DNA of 64,000 nucleotides from an uncultured Acidobacteriota bacterium (lineage in GTDB: Bacteria; Acidobacteriota; Thermoanaerobaculia; UBA5066; DATFVB01). Below are positions 7,676 through 45,387 of this stretch, in pieces; position 1 is the first letter of the stretch, and every line of letters starts with the position of its first letter. The stretch spans positions 75,524-139,523 of the forward strand of contig CAWEYG010000005.1 of assembly GCA_963813155.1 (NCBI GenBank), in the 5' to 3' direction. The notes under the pieces were generated by a model. That model searched no databases, was not told where the DNA came from, and saw only the letters and a program-made list of their open reading frames with translations. Position numbers and translations under genes: made by a program.

Positions 7676-7686
<11 letters not shown>
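7147..7686 (+). CDS. atpH: F0F1 ATP synthase subunit delta (OSCP)
   Basis: [17 protein letters not shown]...; ATGA overlap with the b subunit; located upstream of alpha. Confidence 0.8.
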
Positions 7687-9208
<1,522 letters not shown>

Positions 9209-9218
9209 CCGGCAGACG

Positions 9219-11550
<2,332 letters not shown>

Positions 11551-34260: not shown

Positions 34261-35964
34261 ATGCCCACGATGACGCGGTTCCGGTGGCTCCCCGTGCTTC
34301 TCGCCGCTTTCGCCGCTTTTTGCGCGCCGGTCGAGAGGCACCGCCGCACGGCGCCGCTCGGGGAGCCGAAGGAAACCAACGGCATTCGGACGATGGGCAG
34401 CTCGTTCCTCCGGCGCCGGGGAGGCGTTTTCGAAGCTCGATTCGCCGGCGGTCCCTACGAGCGCGGCTACGCGAGGGGAAGGCTCCTCTACGACCAGATC
34501 GCGGCGGGCGAGAGAGACCTCGAGTTTCTGCTGGCCCGGATGGTCCCTTCCCCGTGGAAGCGCTGGGGTCTGCGCGAGATTCTCGCGTGGACGATGAGAA
34601 GATCGGACCGTTGGGTCGGAAGGGAACACGAAGAGGAAATCGCGGGAATGGCCGACGCGGAATTCCCCGACCCGGTTCCCGGAGCGTGGACGCCGTACGC
34701 GCGGCAATTCGCCCTGCACTTTCTTCACGATTTCACTCAGCGCTTCACCGACACGATGCCCCTCGCGGGCGCCTGCAGCGGTTTTGCGGCGGGCTCGGCG
34801 TCGACTGCAGACGGGCACGTGTACCTCGCGCGCGACTTCGACTTCGAAGCGGGTCCACAATTCGATCGCGAGAAGATTGTCGGAGCGGTCGTGCCCGACA
34901 CGGGTCACGCGTTCCTGTCGGTCAGCTTTGGCGGTCTGACGGGCGTCGTGTCCGGCTTCAACGACGCGGGCCTCGGTGTGTCCCTCCACGCCCTGACCGG
35001 CGGCCCGACGGCGGGCGCCGGGGAACCGTCGGCCCTCCTCGCCGCCGACGTTCTCCAGCGCGACACGACGGTGGACGAGGCGATCGCGAGGATTCGGGCG
35101 GCGCGCGTGCTCGTTTCCGACCTCTACCTGCTCGCCGACGCGTCCGGAGCTCTTGCCGTCGTCGAGAAGACGCCGCGCGCGACGGGAGTCCGGCGCGGCG
35201 CCGGCTGGATCTCCGCGACGAACCTCGCGCGAACCCCCGAAGTCGTCCGGCTCGTCGGGCGCTCTCCGTCCTATTCGACGGCCGCTTTCCGGCAGGCCCG
35301 TCTCGACGAGCTCCTCTCGGCCCGCGCGGGACGCCTCGACGCCGCCTCGGCTGTCGCGATCCTTCGCGACCGGAGAGCGGCGGGAGGCGCCAGCCTCGGA
35401 CCGGGGAACCGCAACGCGATCGATGCGTTGATCGCGTGCCACTCCGTCGTCTTCGATCTCACGGCTCGGCGGGCCTATGTGGCGACGGCGCCTCACACGC
35501 TGGGAGCCTACGCGGCGTTCGATCTGCCGCTGCTGGCCGCGGCCGCCCCGGAGGACCGGCGCTTCGAGAAGCTCGAGGCGGCTTCGATTCCCGCGGACCC
35601 GCTTCTGGACTCGGGAGAATACGCGCGGTACCGGCGCGCGAGGCAGCTCAACCGGATCGCCCGGGCGGAGCTGAGTCGCGGAAAGCCGGCGGACGCCGAG
35701 CGCGACGCGAGCTCCGCGCTGGGGTCCTCGCCCCATTTTCTCGAGGCGCTCGTCTGCCGCGGGGAAGCGCGCTGGCGGCTGGGAAAGAAGAGCGCGGCGG
35801 AGGCGGACTTCGACTCCGCTTCCCGCCTCTCTCCGGGTCCTCCCGACTTCGCGGCCCAGATCGACCGCGTCCGGCGGGAGCTGCGGGAGGGCCGGGCGCC
35901 GGGGCGGCTCGTTTCCTTTCCCCTTTCGCTCGAGGACCTCCTCGACGAAAATCAACGGCAATGA
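34261..35964 (+). CDS. C45-family Ntn-hydrolase (acyl-CoA:6-APA acyltransferase-like) peptidase with C-terminal TPR-like region; signal peptide
   Basis: Signal WLPVLLAAFAAFCAPV; autoproteolytic Cys motif MPLAGACSGFAAGSASTADGHVYLARDFDF; C-terminal helical repeats. Confidence 0.6.
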   Translation: MPTMTRFRWLPVLLAAFAAFCAPVERHRRTAPLGEPKETNGIRTMGSSFLRRRGGVFEARFAGGPYERGYARGRLLYDQIAAGERDLEFLLARMVPSPWKRWGLREILAWTMRRSDRWVGREHEEEIAGMADAEFPDPVPGAWTPYARQFALHFLHDFTQRFTDTMPLAGACSGFAAGSASTADGHVYLARDFDFEAGPQFDREKIVGAVVPDTGHAFLSVSFGGLTGVVSGFNDAGLGVSLHALTGGPTAGAGEPSALLAADVLQRDTTVDEAIARIRAARVLVSDLYLLADASGALAVVEKTPRATGVRRGAGWISATNLARTPEVVRLVGRSPSYSTAAFRQARLDELLSARAGRLDAASAVAILRDRRAAGGASLGPGNRNAIDALIACHSVVFDLTARRAYVATAPHTLGAYAAFDLPLLAAAAPEDRRFEKLEAASIPADPLLDSGEYARYRRARQLNRIARAELSRGKPADAERDASSALGSSPHFLEALVCRGEARWRLGKKSAAEADFDSASRLSPGPPDFAAQIDRVRRELREGRAPGRLVSFPLSLEDLLDENQRQ

Positions 35965-36653
35965 GTCGCCCGGAGCCGATTCTCGCCGGGAAAGGGCTTT
36001 CGAAAACGTACCGCCTCGGCCGCGAGCGGGTACGCGCGCTGCGCGGACTCGACGTGAACGTCTCGGCGGGAGAGTTCGCGGCGATCGAGGGGCCGTCGGG
36101 ATCGGGAAAGACGACGTTGCTGAACGTTCTCGGGCTCCTCGATTCGTCCGATTCGGGCACTCTCCGCATCGACGGCGAGGACACCGGGCCGCTCCCGGAG
36201 CCGCAGCGCTCCGCGATCCGGCTGCGGAGGTTTGGGTTCGTCTTCCAGACCTTCAACCTGATTCCGGTCCTGACAGCGCGGGAAAACGTCGAGTACCCGA
36301 TGGCCCTTTCGGGCGTCGCAAAGGCGCGGCGCCAGGACGCCGCCCGGGATCTCCTGCGGAGCGTCGGAATCGCGGAAAAGGAAGGCGTTCGACCCGATCT
36401 CCTTTCCGGCGGTCAGCGCCAGCGGGTGGCGATCGCCCGCGCGCTCGCGAATTCTCCGGAGATCGTGTTCGCGGACGAACCGACGGCGAACCTCGACAGC
36501 CATACGGCCGGCGAGATCCTCGACCTGATGTCCCGTTTGAACGAGGTCAACGGCGTCGCGTTTCTCTTCGCGACCCACGACCCGCGCGTCGTCGCGCGCG
36601 CGAAGAGGGTCCTCGTGCTTCGGGACGGAGAGATCGTGGAGGACCGGGCGTGA
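35961..36653 (+). CDS. ABC transporter ATP-binding protein (LolD/MacB-type)
   Basis: Walker A GPSGSGKTTLLN, signature LSGGQRQRVAIARAL, Walker B VFADEPTANLD; ATGA overlap with the upstream gene. Confidence 0.9.
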   Translation: MSRPEPILAGKGLSKTYRLGRERVRALRGLDVNVSAGEFAAIEGPSGSGKTTLLNVLGLLDSSDSGTLRIDGEDTGPLPEPQRSAIRLRRFGFVFQTFNLIPVLTARENVEYPMALSGVAKARRQDAARDLLRSVGIAEKEGVRPDLLSGGQRQRVAIARALANSPEIVFADEPTANLDSHTAGEILDLMSRLNEVNGVAFLFATHDPRVVARAKRVLVLRDGEIVEDRA

Positions 36654-37876
36654 ATCCCTGGGAATTCGCTCTCCGCAACGTCCTGCGCAACCGCCGGCGA
36701 AGCGTCCTCACCGCGGGCGTCGTGGTTTTCGGTTTCGCGGCCTTCGCCCTCGCCGGCGGTTTCATGTCGCAGACGTTCGACAGCTTGAGGCAGGGGACGA
36801 TCCGCGGCGGGGTCGGACAGATCCAGGTCGCGCAGCCGGAAACGTTTCGGGGCGCCGAAGACCGCACGCTGGAACACGGCATCGCCGACGCGGCCGCTGT
36901 GGAATCGGTTCTTCGGCGCGATCCCGACGTGGAGGCCGTTCTGCCGCGCATCGACTTCGTGGGCCTCGTGTCCAACGGTGCCCGGTCGATTCCCTATCTC
37001 GGCGTGGGATTCGATCCGAGGCCGGAAGCGACCGCGATGGATACGAAGGCGCTCGTCCAGGAAGGCCGGTGGTTCGCCTCTTCCGACGAAGCGGAAGTCC
37101 TGCTCGGAACAGGACTGGCGCTCGCCTTGCAGGTTCGTCCCGGCGGAACCGTGACGATGTTTGGCACCACTCCCGACGGGGTACTGAACGCGCTCGACGC
37201 GAACGTCGTCGGCCTCGTCGATCTTCCCGTCAAGGAGCTCAACGACCGTTACCTCGCGACGACCCTTCCTTCGGCTTCGCGGCTCCTCGGCGTGACCGGG
37301 GTCGTCTCCAAGCTCGTCGTCATGCTTCGGCCCGGCCGCGACGATCGGGCCGCGAAAGGGCGCCTGGAGGTCTCGCTCCGAAACATCCGCCCGCGGCTCG
37401 AGGTCAAGAGCTGGAGAGAGCTCGCGCTCTTCTACAACCAGGTGAAGCTCCTCTATGTCGGGATCTTCGGGTTCATGGGCGCGATTCTCGTCGTCGTGGT
37501 CCTGCTGGCCTGCGCGAACACGATGACCATGGCGACGACCGAGCGAATCCGCGAGATCGGCACGCTGCGTGCCATCGGCACGCCTCCGGCGACGATTCGC
37601 AAGATGTTCGTGGCGGAGGGTGTCGTGATCTCCTCGTTCGGCTGCCTCGCCGGGGCGGTTCTCGCGCTCGTCGTCCGAGCCGCGCTGAACTCTTCGGGAA
37701 TCGAGCTGCCACCCCCGCCGGGCGCGTCGCACGGAATGCCGATTCACGTCGCGTTCTACCCGGCGACCTACGCGGCCGGCCTCGTTGCAATGGTGTCGAC
37801 GCTTGCTCTTGCCTCGTACATCCCGGCGCGGCGAGCGTCGCGCGTTCCGATCGTCGAGGCCCTGGCGCATGTCTAG
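36650..37876 (+). CDS. ABC transporter permease, FtsX-like (LolC/E-type)
   Basis: N-terminal TM, large periplasmic domain, and C-terminal FtsX 3-TM bundle; 408 aa. Confidence 0.85.
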   Translation: MNPWEFALRNVLRNRRRSVLTAGVVVFGFAAFALAGGFMSQTFDSLRQGTIRGGVGQIQVAQPETFRGAEDRTLEHGIADAAAVESVLRRDPDVEAVLPRIDFVGLVSNGARSIPYLGVGFDPRPEATAMDTKALVQEGRWFASSDEAEVLLGTGLALALQVRPGGTVTMFGTTPDGVLNALDANVVGLVDLPVKELNDRYLATTLPSASRLLGVTGVVSKLVVMLRPGRDDRAAKGRLEVSLRNIRPRLEVKSWRELALFYNQVKLLYVGIFGFMGAILVVVVLLACANTMTMATTERIREIGTLRAIGTPPATIRKMFVAEGVVISSFGCLAGAVLALVVRAALNSSGIELPPPPGASHGMPIHVAFYPATYAAGLVAMVSTLALASYIPARRASRVPIVEALAHV

Positions 37877-38573
37877 GCTCTTCCTCGTCGTCGCCGCCCT
37901 GACCGCGCAGCAGATCCTCGAGCTCGCGGACGCGCCGAAGCGCGCCTTTCCCGAAGCGGCCATCCATGCCCGCGTCGTGGTTTCCGGCGACGCGGCGTCC
38001 CAGGTCCCCGCCGAATTCGATCTCTACAAGAAGGGGGACGACCGCGGTCTCGTCGTCTTCACGGCAGGGAAGCAGAAGGGAAGGAAGATTCTGACCGTCG
38101 GCGAGAAGTTCTGGATCCTCGTTCCCGGGGCCTCGCGCCCGATTCCGGTGACCGCGAATCAGCGGTTGATGGGAGGAGCCGCTCTCGGCGACGTCGCGAA
38201 GCTCCGTTTTTCCAGCGAGTTTGCGGCCACGATCGAGCCCGGGCCCGATTCAGTCGGCGGCTTGACCTGCGACGTGCTGGACCTGAAGGCGAAGGATTCT
38301 CGCTCCTCCTACGGCTCCGGCCGCCTCTGGGTCGACCGGCAGGAGCGCCTCGCGCGCAAGGCCGTTCTCAACCTCGTCTCCGGAAAGCCGGCCAAAGAGA
38401 TCCTCTTCGAGCGCTACGGGAAGGAGAATGGCAAGACGGTGCTGCTCACGATGGCGATCCGCGACCTGCTGGCGGGTCCGGCCGGCACCGTGACGCGCCT
38501 GGAATATTCGAACTACCGGGTAGCGAAGATCGACGATTCTTTCTTCACGCCGGAAGGCGCGCTCAAGTTCTAG
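37869..38573 (+). CDS. Outer-membrane lipoprotein-sorting (LolA-like) protein
   Basis: Signal peptide MSRLFLVVAALTAQ; ~230 aa; overlaps the stop of the permease gene. Confidence 0.6.
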   Translation: MSRLFLVVAALTAQQILELADAPKRAFPEAAIHARVVVSGDAASQVPAEFDLYKKGDDRGLVVFTAGKQKGRKILTVGEKFWILVPGASRPIPVTANQRLMGGAALGDVAKLRFSSEFAATIEPGPDSVGGLTCDVLDLKAKDSRSSYGSGRLWVDRQERLARKAVLNLVSGKPAKEILFERYGKENGKTVLLTMAIRDLLAGPAGTVTRLEYSNYRVAKIDDSFFTPEGALKF

Positions 38574-38626: not shown

Positions 38627-39028
38627 CTACTCCTCCGGCAGCTCGTGTTCTTCTTCGACGATTCGCTCGACTCCGGGCGAGGTGAACTCCAGGATGAGCT
38701 CGGGCAGAGTTTCGGAGAATTGTGAGCGGGGGAGAACCCGATCGACGCCCTGGGCCTTCGATTCGTCGGCGAGCTTCTTGTCGACGTGCGAAAGGAATCC
38801 CACGACCGGGACCCCCCGGGTCTTCGCGCCCTGTTTCAGGCGCGCGATCACCGGAAGCGCCGCGTCGGAGAGCTCCACGAAAACCGCGGCCGGCTCGTCC
38901 GCGCACGCTTTCGAGAGGTCGTCCAGGCGCGCGACGAATTCCACGGGAATGTTCAAATTTCGGGCGGCCGCGTCGATCTTGGCGCGGAACATGAGATCTT
39001 CCACATGGGCGACGATTCTCTTTTGCAT
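38627..39028 (-). CDS. Response-regulator receiver-like domain protein (stand-alone, CheY-like)
   Basis: 133-aa protein MQKRIVAHVEDLMFRAKIDAAARNLNIPVEFVARLDDL...AAVFVELSD...VVGFLSHVD, with a beta-alpha layout typical of receiver domains. Confidence 0.5.
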   Translation of the reverse strand: MQKRIVAHVEDLMFRAKIDAAARNLNIPVEFVARLDDLSKACADEPAAVFVELSDAALPVIARLKQGAKTRGVPVVGFLSHVDKKLADESKAQGVDRVLPRSQFSETLPELILEFTSPGVERIVEEEHELPEE

Positions 39029-39045
39029 GGTTCTTGGGATTGATT

Positions 39046-40137
39046 CTAGAACGTTTTGACGAGATCGAACAGGTATCGGTTCAAATAATGCGATCGATCC
39101 TGCCGCCGCTGAAAGACGACGGAAGGCCGAATCTCGACGCCCGCGACCACCGTGTAGGCGATTCCCACGCGGTGTCCGACGTACCAGGAGTGAAACCACC
39201 AGTCGTCCGTGTTGTAGGCACCGACGACGGCGTCGCGGTCGACGTACTGGTAGATCTCGAAGGCCTGGAAATCTCCCCGGTCGCCTTCCCGCCCGACCCG
39301 AATCGCGGCCTCGAATCCGTCCCTGTACGCGTTTTCGCTCGCCGCGAGATTTCGCGTCCAGTCGAGCGACAGGGCTACCGGAACCTTGGCGACACCGAAC
39401 CGGACCCTGGCCAGTGAATCGACGATTCGGAAATCGTCCAGATATGCCGGCGCGGCGGCGGAGGTCACGTTCTGGCGGAGGAAATGCAGCGCGGTCTTCT
39501 GAAGATGAGTGAACCTCCAGTAACTCTCCGACCAGTCGAGCGCGAAAGAATCGGCGTCTCCGAAGGCCCACGTCACCTGGCCCGCTCCGATGTGGGAATC
39601 GTCGTGTTCACGCTGAGGGCCGTAAAAAAAACCTCCGGCGATGCTGACCGAGGACGTCGCCGAGAAGGCAATCCGCCACGCCGCCGATCCGCCGAGCACC
39701 TGGACGTCGTGGTCCCACAACATTTCGGTCGCCCGCAGGGGCATGCCGAACTTGCCCGCGGTGATCGTGAAATTCCCCGGCCGCGCCTCGAGGAAGGCGC
39801 GGTCGAGCGCGGCGTTGTTCGACCGGTAATTGTCCAGCAGCCGGTCGTTGGTGGCGTTGGAGTCCGACGAAAGCTCGCCGAGGAGACGGACGCCCAGGCG
39901 AAAACGATCGGAAGCGCGCCAGTCGAGCTCCGGCCGGACTTCCGATCGCCAGCGGTAGATGTTGGGCGCCGGCGCCTGCCGGGCAAGCTGGATGTCGTCG
40001 TATCGAAGGAGCGCGTCCCAGCGAAACTCGAACCCCTCCGTGGACGTCGGGGCTTCATAATGCGGCTCGGCTTCCTGTCCTGAGAGGCGGGTCGCGAAGG
40101 CGACGATGAGGAAAAGGACGGCCGGGCGAACCCTCAC
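39046..40137 (-). CDS. Outer-membrane beta-barrel protein (putative porin) with signal peptide
   Basis: Signal MRVRPAVLFLIVAFATRLSG; alternating amphipathic beta strands; C-terminal ...YLFDLVKTF; GTGA overlap with the kinase gene stop. Confidence 0.6.
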   Translation of the reverse strand: MRVRPAVLFLIVAFATRLSGQEAEPHYEAPTSTEGFEFRWDALLRYDDIQLARQAPAPNIYRWRSEVRPELDWRASDRFRLGVRLLGELSSDSNATNDRLLDNYRSNNAALDRAFLEARPGNFTITAGKFGMPLRATEMLWDHDVQVLGGSAAWRIAFSATSSVSIAGGFFYGPQREHDDSHIGAGQVTWAFGDADSFALDWSESYWRFTHLQKTALHFLRQNVTSAAAPAYLDDFRIVDSLARVRFGVAKVPVALSLDWTRNLAASENAYRDGFEAAIRVGREGDRGDFQAFEIYQYVDRDAVVGAYNTDDWWFHSWYVGHRVGIAYTVVAGVEIRPSVVFQRRQDRSHYLNRYLFDLVKTF

Positions 40138-42275
40138 GCCGTCACTTCCGAAAGCTCCTTGTTCATCTCGGCGATGGACTGATATCGCTGATCGGGATCC
40201 TTCTCGATCGCTTTCATCACGATCTTTGCGATGCGGGGATCGATTTCGGGATATCTCGTTTCGATCGCCGGGGGTTTTTCCTGGATGTGTTTGAGAACCA
40301 CGCCGAGGGCCGAGTCCCCCTCGAATGGCAGCGTTCCGGAGAAGAGCTCGTAGAACACGATCCCGGCCGAATAGATGTCGGTCCGATGATCGAGAGTGCC
40401 CCCTTTCGCCTGCTCCGGCGAGATGTAGTCCGGCGTTCCGACGACCATCCCGGTCGCGGTCATTCCCTTGTCCTGGGAAAGCCGCGCGATGCCGAAATCC
40501 ATGATCTTCAACCCGCCGTTGGGTTCGATCAGAATGTTCTGCGGCTTGATGTCTCGGTGAATGACGCCCGCGGCGTGCGCGGCCCCCAGTCCTCCGCAGA
40601 TCTGCTTCGCGATCCGGAGCGCGGCCCCGACCGGCAGCCGGCGGTTCTGGTTGAGCAGGTGCTTGAGCGTGATTCCGCGCACATACTCCATCGACAGGTA
40701 GCGAAGGCCGTCCGATTCCCCGAAATCGTGCGTCCGCAGGACGTTTCGGTGGGTGATTTTCCGCGCGAGACGGATCTCCTGCTTGAAACGGTCGATGAGC
40801 GTCGCGTCGTGGGCGAGAGCCTCGTTTCGGAGCACCTTGATCGCGACCGCGTCGTCCAGCGTGCGATCGTGGGCCTTGTAAACGATTCCCATGCCTCCCG
40901 CGCCGAGCTCCGATTCGATGTCGTAGCGGCCCGCGAAGAGAGCACCGACTCGGGGCGCGTGGCCGCCGGCCGCCGAGGACGCCGGCACGGTGGCCGCCAT
41001 CGCGACGGTCTTCTGCGGCGCGATTCCCCCCATCGTCAGGGAAGCAAGCTGCTTTTCGAGCTCCGCCTTCTCCTTGAGCTCCTCGATCATCATTCGGAAG
41101 GATCGAGCGAGGATTCCGATCTCGTCTTTCTGCTCGACCGGCAACGGCACGTCGTAGTTCCCGTCGCGGACCGCGTCCGTCGCGGCCACCATTTCGCCGA
41201 TCGGTCCCGTCATGCGCCGGGCGAGGATGTAGGAAACGAGAAAGGCCACGAGGAGAGCGCCGAACCCGACGATCAGGAGGGTCTTTTCGATCTCGCGAAA
41301 GGCCGCGAGCTCGCGGGACAGCGGGCGCACCGTGACGACGGATCCGACGACGAGGCCCGAGGCGAGCCGCAACGGCCAGGCGAGGGCCAGGTAAGTGTCC
41401 TCTCCCGTGTCGATCGACAGCGGCCCGGCGACTCTTCCGTGCTGGAGGACCGCGGACACGAGATCTTTTCGGGACTCGAGCGTTCGAAAAAACGGTTTCG
41501 TCGCGATTCCGAGCGTCGAGGCGGCGACCTGGATGCGGGGCTCCTGCGACGGCTGGCTCAGGTTCGCCAGGAAGACCGCGTCGGTCGACGAAACGTCCCG
41601 AAAATTCTCGGCCACCTTGTCATCGATCGCGAAGCAGGCAACCAGGACCCCGAGCGTTTCGGCTTCCCTTCCCTCGCCCGAGACGACCGGGGCGGCGACG
41701 GCATGGTAGAGCTTTCCGTCGGAATACCAGATGCCCTGAGTCTCGGCCCCCTCGAGCGCCTTGCGGACGAGCGCCGAATCCGAAATGTCGTGCCGCCACT
41801 CCCTCTTGTCGCTCCGGACGATCGAGATTCCGCGGGGATCGGTGACGATCAGGAAATCGGCGCCGGTCGCGGAGGCCTGGTCTTCCTTCAGGCTGTTGAA
41901 GATCGTGGCGGCGTCCCCCTCGTGGACGAGCGCTTTGAACCCGGAGTTGTCCACGACGGGACGCAGGGCCCGGTGGAGCTTCTCGTAGCGGTCTTCCTGG
42001 AAATTGTCGTAGGAATCCTTCGCGCGCGAAAGCGCCTTCCGGCTCGACTGTTCCGCGATCGACCGCACGCGATAGCTCGAAACCTCGACGGCGGTGCCGA
42101 GCGCGAGAAACACGAGCGCCGCGACGGCGAGAAAGATCTTGATCGTCAGCGAGAATTTCGGCTTCTCCGAGCGGACGGGAGGTTCGGGCACCGGTACGGC
42201 GCTGGTCATCGCCGCCGAGGCGGTTCCGGCGCCGATACGGGTCGTTTTCTGCGGATTGACCGTGGGTCCGGCCAT
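40134..42275 (-). CDS. Transmembrane sensor Ser/Thr protein kinase with periplasmic sensor domain and HAMP domain
   Basis: TM1 FSLTIKIFLAVAALVFLALG, ~330-aa periplasmic domain, TM2 LLIVGFGALLVAFLVSYILA, HAMP RRMTGPIGEMV...RSFRMMIEELKEK, kinase motifs GAGGMGIVYKA...AIKVL...HRDIKPQNIL...DFGIA...GTPDYISPE. Confidence 0.88.
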   Translation of the reverse strand: MAGPTVNPQKTTRIGAGTASAAMTSAVPVPEPPVRSEKPKFSLTIKIFLAVAALVFLALGTAVEVSSYRVRSIAEQSSRKALSRAKDSYDNFQEDRYEKLHRALRPVVDNSGFKALVHEGDAATIFNSLKEDQASATGADFLIVTDPRGISIVRSDKREWRHDISDSALVRKALEGAETQGIWYSDGKLYHAVAAPVVSGEGREAETLGVLVACFAIDDKVAENFRDVSSTDAVFLANLSQPSQEPRIQVAASTLGIATKPFFRTLESRKDLVSAVLQHGRVAGPLSIDTGEDTYLALAWPLRLASGLVVGSVVTVRPLSRELAAFREIEKTLLIVGFGALLVAFLVSYILARRMTGPIGEMVAATDAVRDGNYDVPLPVEQKDEIGILARSFRMMIEELKEKAELEKQLASLTMGGIAPQKTVAMAATVPASSAAGGHAPRVGALFAGRYDIESELGAGGMGIVYKAHDRTLDDAVAIKVLRNEALAHDATLIDRFKQEIRLARKITHRNVLRTHDFGESDGLRYLSMEYVRGITLKHLLNQNRRLPVGAALRIAKQICGGLGAAHAAGVIHRDIKPQNILIEPNGGLKIMDFGIARLSQDKGMTATGMVVGTPDYISPEQAKGGTLDHRTDIYSAGIVFYELFSGTLPFEGDSALGVVLKHIQEKPPAIETRYPEIDPRIAKIVMKAIEKDPDQRYQSIAEMNKELSEVTA

Positions 42276-42277
42276 CG

Positions 42278-42985
42278 TCAGTAACGATCCTCGTCCTGTG
42301 GCGGAGGCGGGTATTCCTGCCCGTACTTGTTCTTGTGGGCCTGCGGCTTGAACCCCGAAACGTCGAGCGAGAGAGAAGCGATGGCAGTCTTCCGCGGGGA
42401 AACCTGGACCCGGGCGCTCGTCTCGCCGCCCTCGTCGCACCACGCCTTGATCGTCTTCTCGCCGTCGGGCACGTTCTCGAAAGTGAACTCCCCGTCGGCG
42501 TCCGTCACGGCGAAAAACGACGAATCGACGACTCGGATGAAGCCGATCATCTGCGGGTGAATGTTGCAGTAGACGCGCACGAGGCCCGGCGTTTCGAACT
42601 TCTTGTCCTTCGAGCGTCCCCGGCGGTAGAGCCCGAGGTCGAAGTGGTTCTCCGCGGAAACCGAGAAAACGTTGTGGAAGAGGGGGTCCTCGTTCGGAAA
42701 GGCGACGCTGTGGCCGACCTCGACGGCGATCACCTTCGGCGTGAATTTCTTGTGCAGCGATTTCATCGCCGGCCCGGGTTCGGCCGCCGGCGAGGGCGCG
42801 ATTCCGGGAGCCGCGCCGGGCCGCCGCGCGCCTTCGATCCAGATCACGACGTTGGCCGCTTCCGCGCGAGCCTGCCCGTTTTCGACGAGCGAAACTCTGC
42901 CGCTGACCGTTCCGGCGGAAAGCGCACCCGCCGACGCCACGAGCACCGGGAGGAGCCGTAGGGTCCGCGCAGCCGGGGACTTCAT
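42278..42985 (-). CDS. Secreted cupredoxin (type-1 copper site) domain protein with carboxypeptidase-regulatory-like beta-sandwich
   Basis: Signal peptide; candidate copper ligands HSVAF...FHNVF and YCNIHPQM (Cys-x2-His-x2-Met); stop lies 2 nt before the kinase start. Confidence 0.6.
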   Translation of the reverse strand: MKSPAARTLRLLPVLVASAGALSAGTVSGRVSLVENGQARAEAANVVIWIEGARRPGAAPGIAPSPAAEPGPAMKSLHKKFTPKVIAVEVGHSVAFPNEDPLFHNVFSVSAENHFDLGLYRRGRSKDKKFETPGLVRVYCNIHPQMIGFIRVVDSSFFAVTDADGEFTFENVPDGEKTIKAWCDEGGETSARVQVSPRKTAIASLSLDVSGFKPQAHKNKYGQEYPPPPQDEDRY

Positions 42986-43041
42986 TGTCGCGGATCATAA
43001 CAGTCCTTGACGCTTTCTTTCCACGCGATTACGCTGCTCCA

Positions 43042-43260
43042 ATGGCTTCGGAACCCGTTCTCATCTTCGGCAAGGACACGTGACCGTACACTTCGGCGGC
43101 CCGTGCGGACTACGCCCGACGAAAGGTTCCCTTCGAATACGTCAACGTGAAGGCTTCCCGGGAAAACATGGACAAAATGCTCGCCTACAGCGAAGGTAGC
43201 CGTGAGGTTCCCGTGATCGTCGAGGACGGACGGGTCACGACCGGATTCGGCGGAACCTGA
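43042..43260 (+). CDS. Glutaredoxin-like (YruB/NrdH-type) small protein with an in-frame TGA at the first active-site cysteine position: candidate selenoprotein (U-P-Y-T), or a point-mutated pseudogene
   Basis: MASEPVLIFGKDT[TGA 43081-43083]PYTSAARADYARRKVPFEYVNVKASRENMDKMLAYSEGSREVPVIVEDGRVTTGFGGT* reproduces the Grx fold pattern (CPYC position, VPxxxI/V, GF). A hairpin begins ~11 nt downstream of the TGA. Confidence 0.45.
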
Positions 43261-43368
43261 GGCGTCTGACACCGTCCGCGGTTCGCGGATTTCCTAGACT
43301 CGAACAGCCTCCCATGTTAAAACGCTCGGAGTCTCAGTACGGGGTACTAGCCGAGGAGGGAAGCTCGT

Positions 43369-45387
43369 ATGGCCAAGACCGAAGCCCCGGCCGCGGAGTT
43401 CCAGCCCTACGTTCCGTCGAATCAGTCTCCGCCGGAGTTCACGGCGAAGGCCATCATCCTCGGCTCTTTCTTCGGCCTTCTGTTCGGCGCGGCGACCGTG
43501 TATCTCGCGCTGCGGGCGGGGCTCACCGTGTCCGCGTCCGTCCCGATCGCGGTGCTGTCGATCGCGGTCTTCAAGAAGCTCGGAAAATCGACGATTCTCG
43601 AGAACAACATCGTCCAGACGATCGGCTCCGCCGGCGAATCCGTCGCGGCGGGAGTCGTGTTCACGGTCCCGGCGCTGCTTTTTCTCTCCAACGGCGCCGA
43701 CTATTTCCGGTACGGAACGATTTTCGTGCTTTCCGCGATCGGCGGAGTTCTCGGCGTGCTGTTCATGATCCCGCTGCGCCGGGCGCTGATCGTCAAGGAG
43801 CACGGGAACCTGATCTATCCGGAGGGGACCGCCTGCGCCGACGTCCTGATCGCGGGCGAGCGGGGTGGCGACCTCGCGAAGATGGTCTTCAAGGGCGTCG
43901 GCGCGGCCCTGCTGTACAAGTTCCTGTACGGCATCATCGGCCTCTGGAACGAGACCGCGCTCTGGTTCAAAACGGACAAGAACGGCAAGATCCCCGACGC
44001 GACGTTGAATTGCGACGTGACGCCGGAATACCTGGGCCTCGGCTACATCATCGGTCCGAAAATCGCCGGCGAGCTGGTCTCGGGCGGCATCCTTTCCTGG
44101 CTCGCGCTGATTCCGCTGATCTCGATCTTCGTGCCGGAGCCCCGGCTCGTGCAGGATCTGACGAACCTCGGTTTCTCAGAAGGATGGCGCGCGTCCCACT
44201 CGCACGCGGAGTGGATCTACCGCGCCTATGTTCGTTACATCGGCGCGGGAGCCGTCGCCTGTGCAGGCGTGATGACGCTGATCAAGACCTTGCCGACGAT
44301 CGTCTCGGCATTCCGAGAGTCGGTCAAATCGATGCGCGGTGGCACCGGAGAGGCGAAGAAGATCCGAACCGAAGACGATCTCGGGATGGGATGGGTGATC
44401 GGTGGATCGGTCGTCCTCGCGCTCCTGATCACGGTCCTTCCCCATTTTCCGCACGGCCCGTTCCCGGGCTCTCTCGTCACGGGACTTCTCGTCGTGGTCT
44501 TCGGCTTCTTCTTCGTGACGGTCTCGTCCCGCATCGTCGGCATCATCGGGACTTCGTCCAATCCGATCTCGGGAATGACGATCGCGACGCTGATGGCGAC
44601 GTGCGTCGTTTTCGTCCTGCTCGGACGCACGGGAGACATCTTTCAGCCGGTCGCGCTCTGCGTCGGCGCGCTCGTCTGCATCGCGGCCGCGAACGCGGGC
44701 GCCACGTCGCAGGACCTGAAGACGGGATATCTCGTCGGCGCGACGCCGCGCAGCCAGCAGATCGGCTTCATCATCGGCGTGCTCGTTTCGACCGTGGCGA
44801 TCGGCGGAACGCTCTTCCTTCTCGACCACACCTACCGCGGCGTGGGTGAGCTCCACGGGATCGGCGGGGCGAAGATGCCCGCGCCGCAGGCGACGCTCAT
44901 GGCGACGATCATCAAGGGGCTGCTCGCGAAGAACCTGCCCTGGGCGCCCGTGCTCGTCGGCGCGTTCCTCGCGTTCATGGCGCAGCTCGCCGGCGCCCAC
45001 GCGCTCTCCTGGGCAGTCGGGGCGTATCTTCCGGTCTCGACGACGTTCCCGATCTGGATCGGCGGCCTGATGAAAGCTCTCGCCGACAAGATGAGCCGCC
45101 GGAAGGAAGAGTCGGAGCTCTCCTCCGGAATGCTCTACGCGACCGGCCTCGTCGCCGGCGGATCGCTCGGAGGCGTGGCGATCGCTCTCGTGACGGCATC
45201 CGGGGACCTCCCGTTCCTCAAGAGGCCACTGGAGTCCCGCGGAGGGCTCATGAACGTGCTGAACCTCGGGGATCGATGGTACGCGGCGTTGAAAAATGGC
45301 GTCGGGGGCCAGATCCTCTGCGCCGCCGTGTTCGCGGTGCTCTGCGTGTTGCTCGTCCGCAACGCGCGAAAGGACCTGGAAGCATGA
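43369..45387 (+). CDS. OPT family oligopeptide transporter
   Basis: 672 aa, about 16 TM segments; RBS GAGGAGGG upstream. Confidence 0.88.

Follow-up and report, generated by a model that had tools for sequence, protein, structure and literature searches.

Bacterial transmembrane receptors are numerous, and the input of most of them is unknown. CusS and CopS are histidine kinases that bind copper in their own sensor domains, and YfiB-YfiR-YfiN is an envelope sensor system that depends on an accessory protein. Blue copper proteins are textbook electron carriers, and to our knowledge they are not recognized as signalling parts. An accessory protein drives the sensor kinase in both QseG-QseE (PMC12691602, PMC6075780) and CpxP-CpxA (PMC4160245). 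The kinase PrkC phosphorylates the receiver domain of WalR at T101 (PMC4478028), and the Ser/Thr kinase Stk phosphorylates CovR at T65 (PMC4006921). Here, we describe an operon from an uncultured Acidobacteriota bacterium of the class Thermoanaerobaculia, located within a stretch of 64,000 nucleotides (nt) of contig CAWEYG010000005.1; this whole stretch is referred to as the window. The operon encodes a secreted cupredoxin-domain protein (cup), a membrane sensor kinase, a predicted outer-membrane protein (OMP) and a receiver-like protein (rec). Across phyla, cup is genomically coupled to a homologous sensor with interchangeable outputs. The genes and sites that carry the argument are as follows.

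42278-42985, minus strand: cup, secreted cupredoxin protein of 235 amino acids (aa), from the open reading frame (ORF) call
42527-42763, minus strand: cupredoxin insert of cup, approximately residues 75-153
42674-42676, 42566-42568, 42557-42559 and 42548-42550, minus strand: codons of the predicted type-1 copper ligands H104, C140, H143 and M146, respectively (codons checked)
42281-42337, minus strand: C-terminal tail of cup, H217-K-N-K220-Y-G222-Q-E-Y225-PPPPQDEDR-Y235, from alignments
40134-42275, minus strand: membrane sensor Ser/Thr kinase of 713 aa, from the ORF call and Pfam
42042-41310, 41225-41070 and 40925-40179, minus strand: periplasmic dCache_3 domain, HAMP domain and Hanks kinase domain of the kinase, respectively, from Pfam
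39046-40137, minus strand: OMP, predicted outer-membrane beta-barrel of 363 aa with a GTG start, from the ORF call and Porin_5
38627-39028, minus strand: rec, predicted stand-alone pseudo-receiver of 133 aa, from the ORF call, AlphaFold2 and Foldseek
38873-38875 and 38723-38725, minus strand: acceptor position E52 and invariant S102 of rec, respectively, from the alignment

A first-pass annotation of the window had described four tightly packed minus-strand genes encoding a cupredoxin, a HAMP-containing Ser/Thr kinase, an outer-membrane barrel and a receiver-like protein. The coordinates and ORFs match this arrangement, and the list of parts proved right by domain scans and structure models. 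The sequence also bears out the reported 2 nt gap between cup and the kinase (cup TGA, 2 nt, kinase ATG) and the overlap in which the OMP GTG shares bases with the kinase TGA (GTGA at 40134-40137). The gap before rec had been given as 18 nt and needs correcting to 17 nt (OMP TAG, 17 nt, rec ATG).

In Acidobacteriota, and likewise in Alpha-, Beta- and Gammaproteobacteria, the gene directly 3' of cup family members encodes a homologous dCache_3-HAMP sensor. In the distant relatives, whose contexts were taken from members at 32-43% identity, the cup and sensor genes overlap by 4-17 nt or stand 1-5 nt apart. On a gammaproteobacterial contig (L081), the cup protein of which falls in a cluster containing a Tahibacter sp. 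sequence, cup is followed by a dCache_3-HAMP-kinase, a Porin_5 protein and a double-FHA protein; further contexts have cup followed by a HAMP-Ser/Thr kinase, and L083 has cup followed by a dCache_3-HAMP-cyclase-kinase fusion. Histidine kinases accompany cup in two other contexts. L084 encodes a MauG-like di-haem peroxidase, a BBP2 barrel, cup, a multihaem cytochrome and a HAMP-Hpt-HATPase histidine kinase, and L087 an OmpR-type regulator, a single-domain receiver, a 430-aa barrel-like protein, cup and a HAMP-HisKA-HATPase kinase. On plasmids of Caballeronia (L088, NZ_CP084253.1), Comamonas aquatica (L089, NZ_CP104280.1) and Novosphingobium (L095, NZ_CP039697.1), a dCache_3-HAMP-GGDEF-EAL protein comes next after cup; the pair is joined by DUF3034 and a group 1 truncated haemoglobin in Caballeronia and Novosphingobium, and a DUF4394 protein lies upstream of cup instead in Comamonas aquatica. 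Contigs L092-L094 were too short to inform on context. Matches on Sinorhizobium pSymA were not counted as instances of the module, as the protein is shorter (126 aa annotated) and no annotated sensor gene adjoins it.

By BLASTP, the sensor region of the window kinase showed full-length homology to the sensors of L083 (7e-58), L081 (3e-24), L088 (7e-18) and L084 (5e-17); the HAMP-HisKA kinase of L087 had no significant similarity to it (E 0.066). A metagenome scan seeded with the gammaproteobacterial member yielded 80 diverse loci at 32-87% identity to the seed, and the homologous sensor lay immediately downstream of cup in 51 of the 54 loci with enough sequence. The output could be judged in 38 of the metagenomic loci: a Ser/Thr kinase in 29, a histidine kinase in 7, and a sensor-histidine kinase upstream in the remaining 2. 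In a gammaproteobacterial clade, rec gives way to a double-FHA phosphothreonine-binding protein, which is the product of the fourth gene in L081, L099 and L100. The pairing of a Ser/Thr kinase with a receiver, which the first-pass annotation regarded as an unusual set of parts, is therefore a lineage-specific output of a much wider cupredoxin/dCache_3-HAMP module. Elsewhere the module feeds into GGDEF-EAL proteins, into cyclase-kinase fusions, into HisKA histidine kinases that come with ordinary response regulators, or into a Ser/Thr kinase paired with an FHA protein.

The L083 fusion (7683-10319, 878 aa), directly downstream of the cup homologue, is in itself of unusual architecture (dCache_3-HAMP-Guanylate_cyc-Pkinase).

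Relatives of cup are abundant. An indexed search returned 4,718 matches, and a profile search of 1.84 billion cluster representatives returned 21,651 at E <= 1e-3, 8,706 at E <= 1e-10 and 1,182 at E <= 1e-30. A scan of one genome per species found close relatives in 369 genomes, and the best 80 of these were all Thermoanaerobaculia or other Acidobacteriota metagenome-assembled genomes. Gene order was counted in these best 80 of 369 genomes by tblastn with the window proteins, at approximately 50-90% cup identity. The order cup, sensor, kinase domain, OMP, rec was kept in essentially every locus that was long enough, down to approximately 50% cup identity, and the window gene order recurs in about 60 species-level genomes. 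The operon recurs far more often than chance would produce. Co-occurrence of the four genes had been suggested as a check on the first-pass annotation, with loss of synteny elsewhere as the outcome that would count against it; the genes are syntenic, and the cup-sensor pair is so in other phyla as well. Synteny by chance was rejected.

The cup protein consists of a signal peptide, a CarboxypepD_reg (transthyretin-like) sandwich split by the cupredoxin insert, and a conserved C-terminal tail. Its AlphaFold2 model has a predicted local distance difference test score (pLDDT) of 86, and the central domain of the model matches the cupredoxin domains of amicyanin, plastocyanin, pseudoazurin and NirK (Foldseek, E 1e-6 to 1e-5, target TM-score (TMt) ~0.7), consistent with a Greek-key beta-sandwich cupredoxin fold. 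In alignments, the copper ligands of the solved cupredoxins 9cck, 5fc9 and 6hbe coincide with H104, C140, H143 and M146, which puts a full His, Cys, His, Met set at the canonical type-1 positions. Among 22 relatives at 32-53% identity and 24 closer ones, C140, H143 and M146 never vary and H104 hardly does. The first-pass annotation had pointed to a type-1-copper-like site (H...H / C-x2-H-x2-M) and called for a structure prediction; the predicted domain has the cupredoxin fold, and the ligand set, the incompleteness of which would have spoken against the site, is complete and conserved in alignments. Copper binding by cup is predicted from the fold and the conservation of the ligands. All four ligands are kept over approximately 70% sequence divergence, and we argue from this that a metallated, redox-active site matters.

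Against the copper-protein profiles, cup is a marginal match. The Copper-bind model (PF00127) gave 17.0 bits for intact cup, against a cut-off of 21.2, and 21.2 bits, exactly at the cut-off, for the excised domain. Against the amicyanin model TIGR02657, cup scored 21 bits where the cut-off is 110, and it is therefore no amicyanin equivalog; no NCBIfam model was found for the cup family. Intact cup has a partial CarboxypepD_reg match (residues 156-206, profile positions 29-80, 26.2 bits), but when residues 25-53 were joined to residues 151-211 the whole profile was matched at 32.9 bits, above the cut-off. This gain shows that the cupredoxin is an insertion inside a transthyretin-like sandwich, an arrangement that is a new result of this study. 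The tail follows the consensus H-x-N-K-x-G-x-x-Y...Y. Among distant relatives, each of H217, K220, G222, Y225 and the last Y is either invariant or conserved to 90% or more. In RefSeq, the cup homologue is named 'methylamine utilization protein' in Caballeronia and Comamonas, and 'carboxypeptidase regulatory-like domain-containing protein' in Novosphingobium. The evidence behind the first of these labels was untraceable and a link to MauL could not be verified; the label may be a misnomer.

The kinase is arranged as a first transmembrane segment, a dCache_3 domain, a second transmembrane segment, a HAMP domain and a Hanks-type kinase domain. Pfam matches were obtained for dCache_3 (PF14827, residues 78-322, 5.5e-11, 42.9 bits with a cut-off of 25.7), HAMP (PF00672, residues 351-402, 3.7e-15, 56.4 bits with a cut-off of 25) and Pkinase (PF00069, residues 451-699, 3.8e-52, 177.7 bits). 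As read from the sequence, hydrophobic segments flank residues 66-335, as in a dCache_3/HAMP sensor, and the catalytic motifs of a Hanks-type Ser/Thr kinase are intact: the G-loop GAGGMG at 458, the VAIK Lys at 477, HRD at 573 and DFG at 593. A Pfam scan of the window kinase found neither HisKA nor HATPase_c; a canonical two-component system was rejected, as the kinase lacks these domains and the receiver lacks the Asp. Assignment as a defence-system kinase was likewise rejected, as the NCBIfam matches to MADS6 and PglW cover only the generic kinase domain and fall far below the cut-offs. A PDB sequence search with the periplasmic domain of the kinase gave no match. No conserved Cys, His or Met was found in the periplasmic domain across 27 sensors, in an alignment that is rough and includes clearly wrong ORF picks for L004 and L013. 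The lack of such residues in the sensor domain fits sensing through a partner protein.

The OMP has a signal peptide, a Porin_5 (PF16930) match of 45.5 bits against a cut-off of 22, and a C-terminus ending ...VKTF; a profile match above threshold, a signal sequence and a terminal Phe together suggest a Porin_5 outer-membrane barrel. It is homologous to the OMP of the gammaproteobacterial locus L081 (3e-27), and the barrels near cup relatives all have a signal peptide and a terminal aromatic residue.

In a family of 430-aa proteins (L087 4737-6029, with homologues in L119-L175), a signal peptide and an N-terminal coiled coil are combined with a C-terminus ending ...LAYFF. The family has no Pfam or NCBIfam match, and judging from these features it is probably an outer-membrane barrel. 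The gene is the immediate upstream neighbour of cup, sharing its strand in the histidine-kinase loci and running divergently in the Ser/Thr-kinase loci.

The fourth gene had been annotated as receiver-like. The fold stands, with an AlphaFold2 model of pLDDT 86 whose top 50 Foldseek matches in the PDB are almost all CheY-like receivers (query TM-score (TMq) 0.63-0.76), which points to a CheY-like (beta-alpha)5 fold; the receiver chemistry does not. No Response_reg (PF00072) match was found in rec at E <= 0.1. The acceptor site at the end of beta3 is Glu in 56 and Asp in 4 of 61 species, and an invariant R101 takes the place of the conserved Lys after beta5. The acidic pair is kept (E10, D11), H81, R101 and S102 are invariant in 61/61 sequences and D11 and K17 in 60/60, and the protein ends in an acidic tail, EEHELPEE. 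Glu at the acceptor site, Arg for Lys and the missing profile match together indicate a pseudo-receiver and not a response regulator. A distant relative of rec (P0181) retains both a PF00072 match and the acceptor Asp, and on these alignments rec appears to be derived from ordinary receivers.

We hypothesize that the products of the operon carry a signal from the cell envelope into the cytoplasm. The homologous sensor is constant across phyla and usually translationally coupled to cup while the outputs are exchanged, which argues that cup is a dedicated partner of the sensor domain; it would serve as a periplasmic co-sensor for the dCache_3 domain of the kinase. In the proposed mechanism, the state of the type-1 copper site would alter how cup engages the sensor; of the two candidate variables, the Cu(I)/Cu(II) oxidation state seems more probable than copper occupancy. 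The HAMP domain would transmit this change through the membrane, and the Hanks-type kinase domain would receive it. We rate this co-sensor model as the likeliest of the readings considered, with its chances evenly balanced. Since the tail is kept wherever the sensor is, whatever the barrel family, the sensor is the likelier docking target of the tail, and the tail may dock there. The redox proteins near cup relatives favour a redox or oxidant signal over copper supply, without settling the matter. The copper/redox-sensing function put forward by the first-pass annotation thus fits the invariant type-1 site and the redox neighbours of the relatives, and it is as an inference that we retain it.

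Downstream of the sensor, the kinase would act on the cytoplasmic pseudo-receiver, most likely by Ser/Thr phosphorylation. The best candidate site is S102, because it is the sole invariant hydroxyl residue of rec. That the fourth gene encodes a small cytoplasmic signalling-domain protein varying by lineage fits a kinase substrate or adaptor. The pseudo-receiver would then pass the signal on by contacting other proteins, possibly by way of its conserved acidic tail. The outer-membrane barrel might provide the signal with access to the periplasm, or anchor the complex at the outer membrane. The contact between cup and the sensor, the nature of the signal, the substrate of the kinase and the role of the barrel are all proposed here by inference.

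In a broader reading, the cup family would represent widespread, unrecognized metalloprotein co-receptors. The type-1 copper would report periplasmic redox potential or an oxidant to dCache_3/HAMP, the tail would dock on the sensor, the outer-membrane barrel would give access, and the module would have been rewired repeatedly to different outputs; in Thermoanaerobaculia, this output would be a Ser/Thr kinase acting on a Glu-substituted pseudo-receiver descended from an ordinary response regulator. We offer this combined reading tentatively, as possible rather than probable.

A number of observations weigh against these proposals. Synteny inside one bacterial class could partly reflect shared ancestry, and the Copper-bind score of intact cup falls below the Pfam cut-off. 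The Porin_5, BBP2, DUF3034 and 430-aa barrel families share no detectable sequence similarity, which makes the role of the barrel the weakest step of the model. Barrel adjacency is also variable: with five OMP queries, a downstream OMP match was found in only 5 of 29 metagenomic loci, and the upstream 430-aa barrel-like gene is present in 22 of 45. The pseudo-receiver has no invariant Thr and only the one invariant Ser, S102, and it is missing at its position in five Acidobacteriota loci; in L048, a convergent gene follows OMP where rec would be. Finally, type-1 cupredoxins are classically electron carriers, and the haem proteins near some relatives fit a metabolic electron-transfer role equally well.

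This last point leads to the alternative that survives best. It is conceivable that cup, possibly with the barrel, is an envelope electron-transfer or detoxification component, working as a periplasmic electron carrier to an oxidant or extracellular acceptor, and that the sensor regulates or monitors that pathway; cup would then be an effector or a co-regulated gene product rather than what feeds the sensor. The classic type-1 ligand set and amicyanin-like fold are what such a carrier would have, and redox neighbours are present in L084 (MauG-like peroxidase, multihaem cytochrome and BBP2 barrel) and, as truncated haemoglobin, in Caballeronia and Novosphingobium. However, neither the window operon nor the conserved Acidobacteriota neighbourhood encodes a redox enzyme, the partner that is constant across phyla is a sensor and not an oxidoreductase, and translational coupling to a low-copy signalling protein would be unusual for a bulk carrier. 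We therefore regard an electron-carrier role as unlikely.

Alternatively, cup could act independently of metal, as a scaffold or ligand-presenting adaptor that connects the sensor with the outer membrane or with a ligand, for example with its tail in the Cache pocket. It would then be comparable to a solute-binding protein or a lipoprotein co-sensor, and a small molecule, mechanical stress or envelope stress would be the stimulus. Neither QseG nor CpxP needs a cofactor (PMC12691602, PMC4160245), outer-membrane barrels recur beside the cup-sensor pair, and across the family the transthyretin-like domain and the tail are conserved as strongly as the copper site. The retention of four copper ligands over approximately 70% divergence is nevertheless hard to explain without a functional metallated site, and we judge a metal-independent adaptor very unlikely. 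That the four genes are neighbours by descent only, their synteny conserved without a functional link, would suit the restriction of the 80 best genome matches to one class or phylum and the extension of synteny past the operon to the OPT and glutaredoxin-like neighbours described below, but it can be dismissed almost entirely, as the cup-sensor pair, often with a barrel, recurs with different flanks and outputs in Alpha-, Beta- and Gammaproteobacteria and many unassigned metagenomic lineages, and throughout, the stop codon of one gene overlaps or almost abuts the start codon of the next.

Around the operon, we identified a putative promoter and two genes transcribed divergently from cup.

42994-43023, minus strand: promoter-like site of the operon, extended -10 TGTTATGAT, from a consensus scan
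43042-43260, plus strand: probable glutaredoxin/NrdH-like selenoprotein gene of 72 codons, with an in-frame TGA at 43081-43083 and a SECIS-like hairpin at approximately 43095-43116
43369-45387, plus strand: OPT-family oligopeptide transporter (Pfam OPT 7.9e-90, TIGR00733 4e-108)

The extended -10 element at 42994-43002 (minus strand) ends 8 nt from the cup ATG, and of 46 related loci, 29 carry TG[CT]TATGAT 8-19 nt 5' of the cup start codon. No Shine-Dalgarno sequence was visible before cup in the window. An extended -10 so close to the start codon implies a leaderless or near-leaderless mRNA; the element is conserved and the promoter putative, and the operon mRNA may accordingly begin at or very near the cup ATG. 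At the other end, the operon is bounded by a LolA-like gene that points towards rec.

The LolA-like protein (37863-38573, PF17131), together with an ABC ATPase and an FtsX/LolC-like permease (36650-37876), occupies positions ~35950-38573 of the window on the plus strand, converging on the operon end. This neighbourhood is syntenic in the four closest relatives only (L001, L002, L003 and L040).

The glutaredoxin-like gene, which was missed by ORF calling, lies on the strand opposite cup, the two start codons being 56 nt apart. Its in-frame TGA falls at the redox-Cys position (FGKDT-U-PYT), with the same codon in 57/57 sequences, and a hairpin resembling a selenocysteine insertion sequence (SECIS) lies 11 nt 3' of the TGA. 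Folded from the window alone, the putative SECIS is unimpressive (z = 0.87), and the hairpin emerged from alignment and covariation alone. In the 57-sequence alignment, the closing pair 15-36 covaries (GC 10, CG 36, UA 8, UG 1, mismatch 2), passing through three Watson-Crick types, which is good evidence for a selenocysteine insertion element. The gene probably encodes a selenoprotein, and the minus-strand ORF 42982-43272 that overlaps it is probably spurious.

In L003 (6134-6331) and L040 (6336-6527), the selenoprotein gene lies upstream of cup on the same strand, so the adjacency of the two genes survives rearrangement. The OPT transporter runs co-directionally with the selenoprotein gene, and it is found upstream of cup, divergently oriented, in nearly all of the 80 Acidobacteriota loci; none was present beside the proteobacterial or metagenomic cup relatives examined. 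Membership of the selenoprotein and the transporter in the system is uncertain, as they are conserved neighbours only within the Acidobacteriota clade. Could the transporter be linked to the operon through thiol or peptide import?

If the co-sensor model is true, a redox-active metal centre on a separate periplasmic protein would be a new input mechanism for a very large set of receptors. Many orphan Ser/Thr kinases, histidine kinases and cyclic di-GMP (c-di-GMP) enzymes would gain a candidate stimulus, and RefSeq's 'methylamine utilization protein' would probably have to be renamed. The module is also a case of output swapping, with one sensor module read by a Ser/Thr kinase and pseudo-receiver, a Ser/Thr kinase and FHA protein, a histidine kinase and response regulators, or GGDEF-EAL. 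The idea is directly testable in the cultured hosts of the GGDEF-EAL version, Caballeronia, Comamonas aquatica and Novosphingobium. In targeted searches of a full-text collection largely without subscription journals, we found no description of a cupredoxin co-sensor or of this operon, and no mention of DUF3034 among the papers listed.

With amicyanin, plastocyanin and pseudoazurin, cup shares the Greek-key fold and the His...Cys-x2-His-x2-Met pattern, and we take its ligand spacing to be that of amicyanin. It differs from them in that the domain sits in a CarboxypepD_reg sandwich and bears the H-x-N-K-x-G-x-x-Y tail, and in that it is genomically tied to a transmembrane sensor and not to a dehydrogenase, oxidase or photosystem; its profile scores relative to amicyanin and plastocyanin are marginal (Copper-bind 17-21 bits). 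The receiver domain of FrzS (PDB 2i6f), which ranks 18 among the Foldseek matches of rec, likewise combines a CheY-like fold with the lack of canonical acceptor chemistry. Unlike FrzS, to which it has no detectable sequence relationship, rec has its own conserved set (E10/D11, K17, E52, H81, R101 and S102) and an acidic tail. A eukaryotic-like kinase acting on a CheY-fold domain at Ser/Thr, as proposed here, would be the theme common to this operon, PrkC-WalR and Stk-CovR. The targets in those two systems are full response regulators that retain a working Asp, have a cognate histidine kinase and are encoded elsewhere, whereas the putative target here is stand-alone, has a Glu acceptor and no output domain, and lies in the kinase's own operon.

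CusS and CopS would share with this system an envelope copper response, if copper is what is sensed here, but the sensor domain in the window lacks conserved Cys, His or Met and the metal site is on a separate protein. The logic of QseG-QseE and CpxP-CpxA is the same, in that a partner in the periplasm or outer membrane, encoded beside an inner-membrane HAMP-type sensor, sets the activity of that sensor. YfiBNR shares this logic and is similarly built in three layers, from an outer-membrane protein through a periplasmic protein to an inner-membrane sensor. The window components have no sequence or fold relationship to any of the three: Pfam and NCBIfam scans found no YfiR, YfiB or QseG family among the window proteins, the HK_near_YfiR_like match covering only the HAMP region. 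In contrast to those systems, the partner here is a putative metalloprotein, the output is of Hanks type, and a barrel takes the place of a lipoprotein. Accessory-protein-assisted envelope sensing is known; what is new in the operon described here is the type of partner, together with an unusual output in this lineage.

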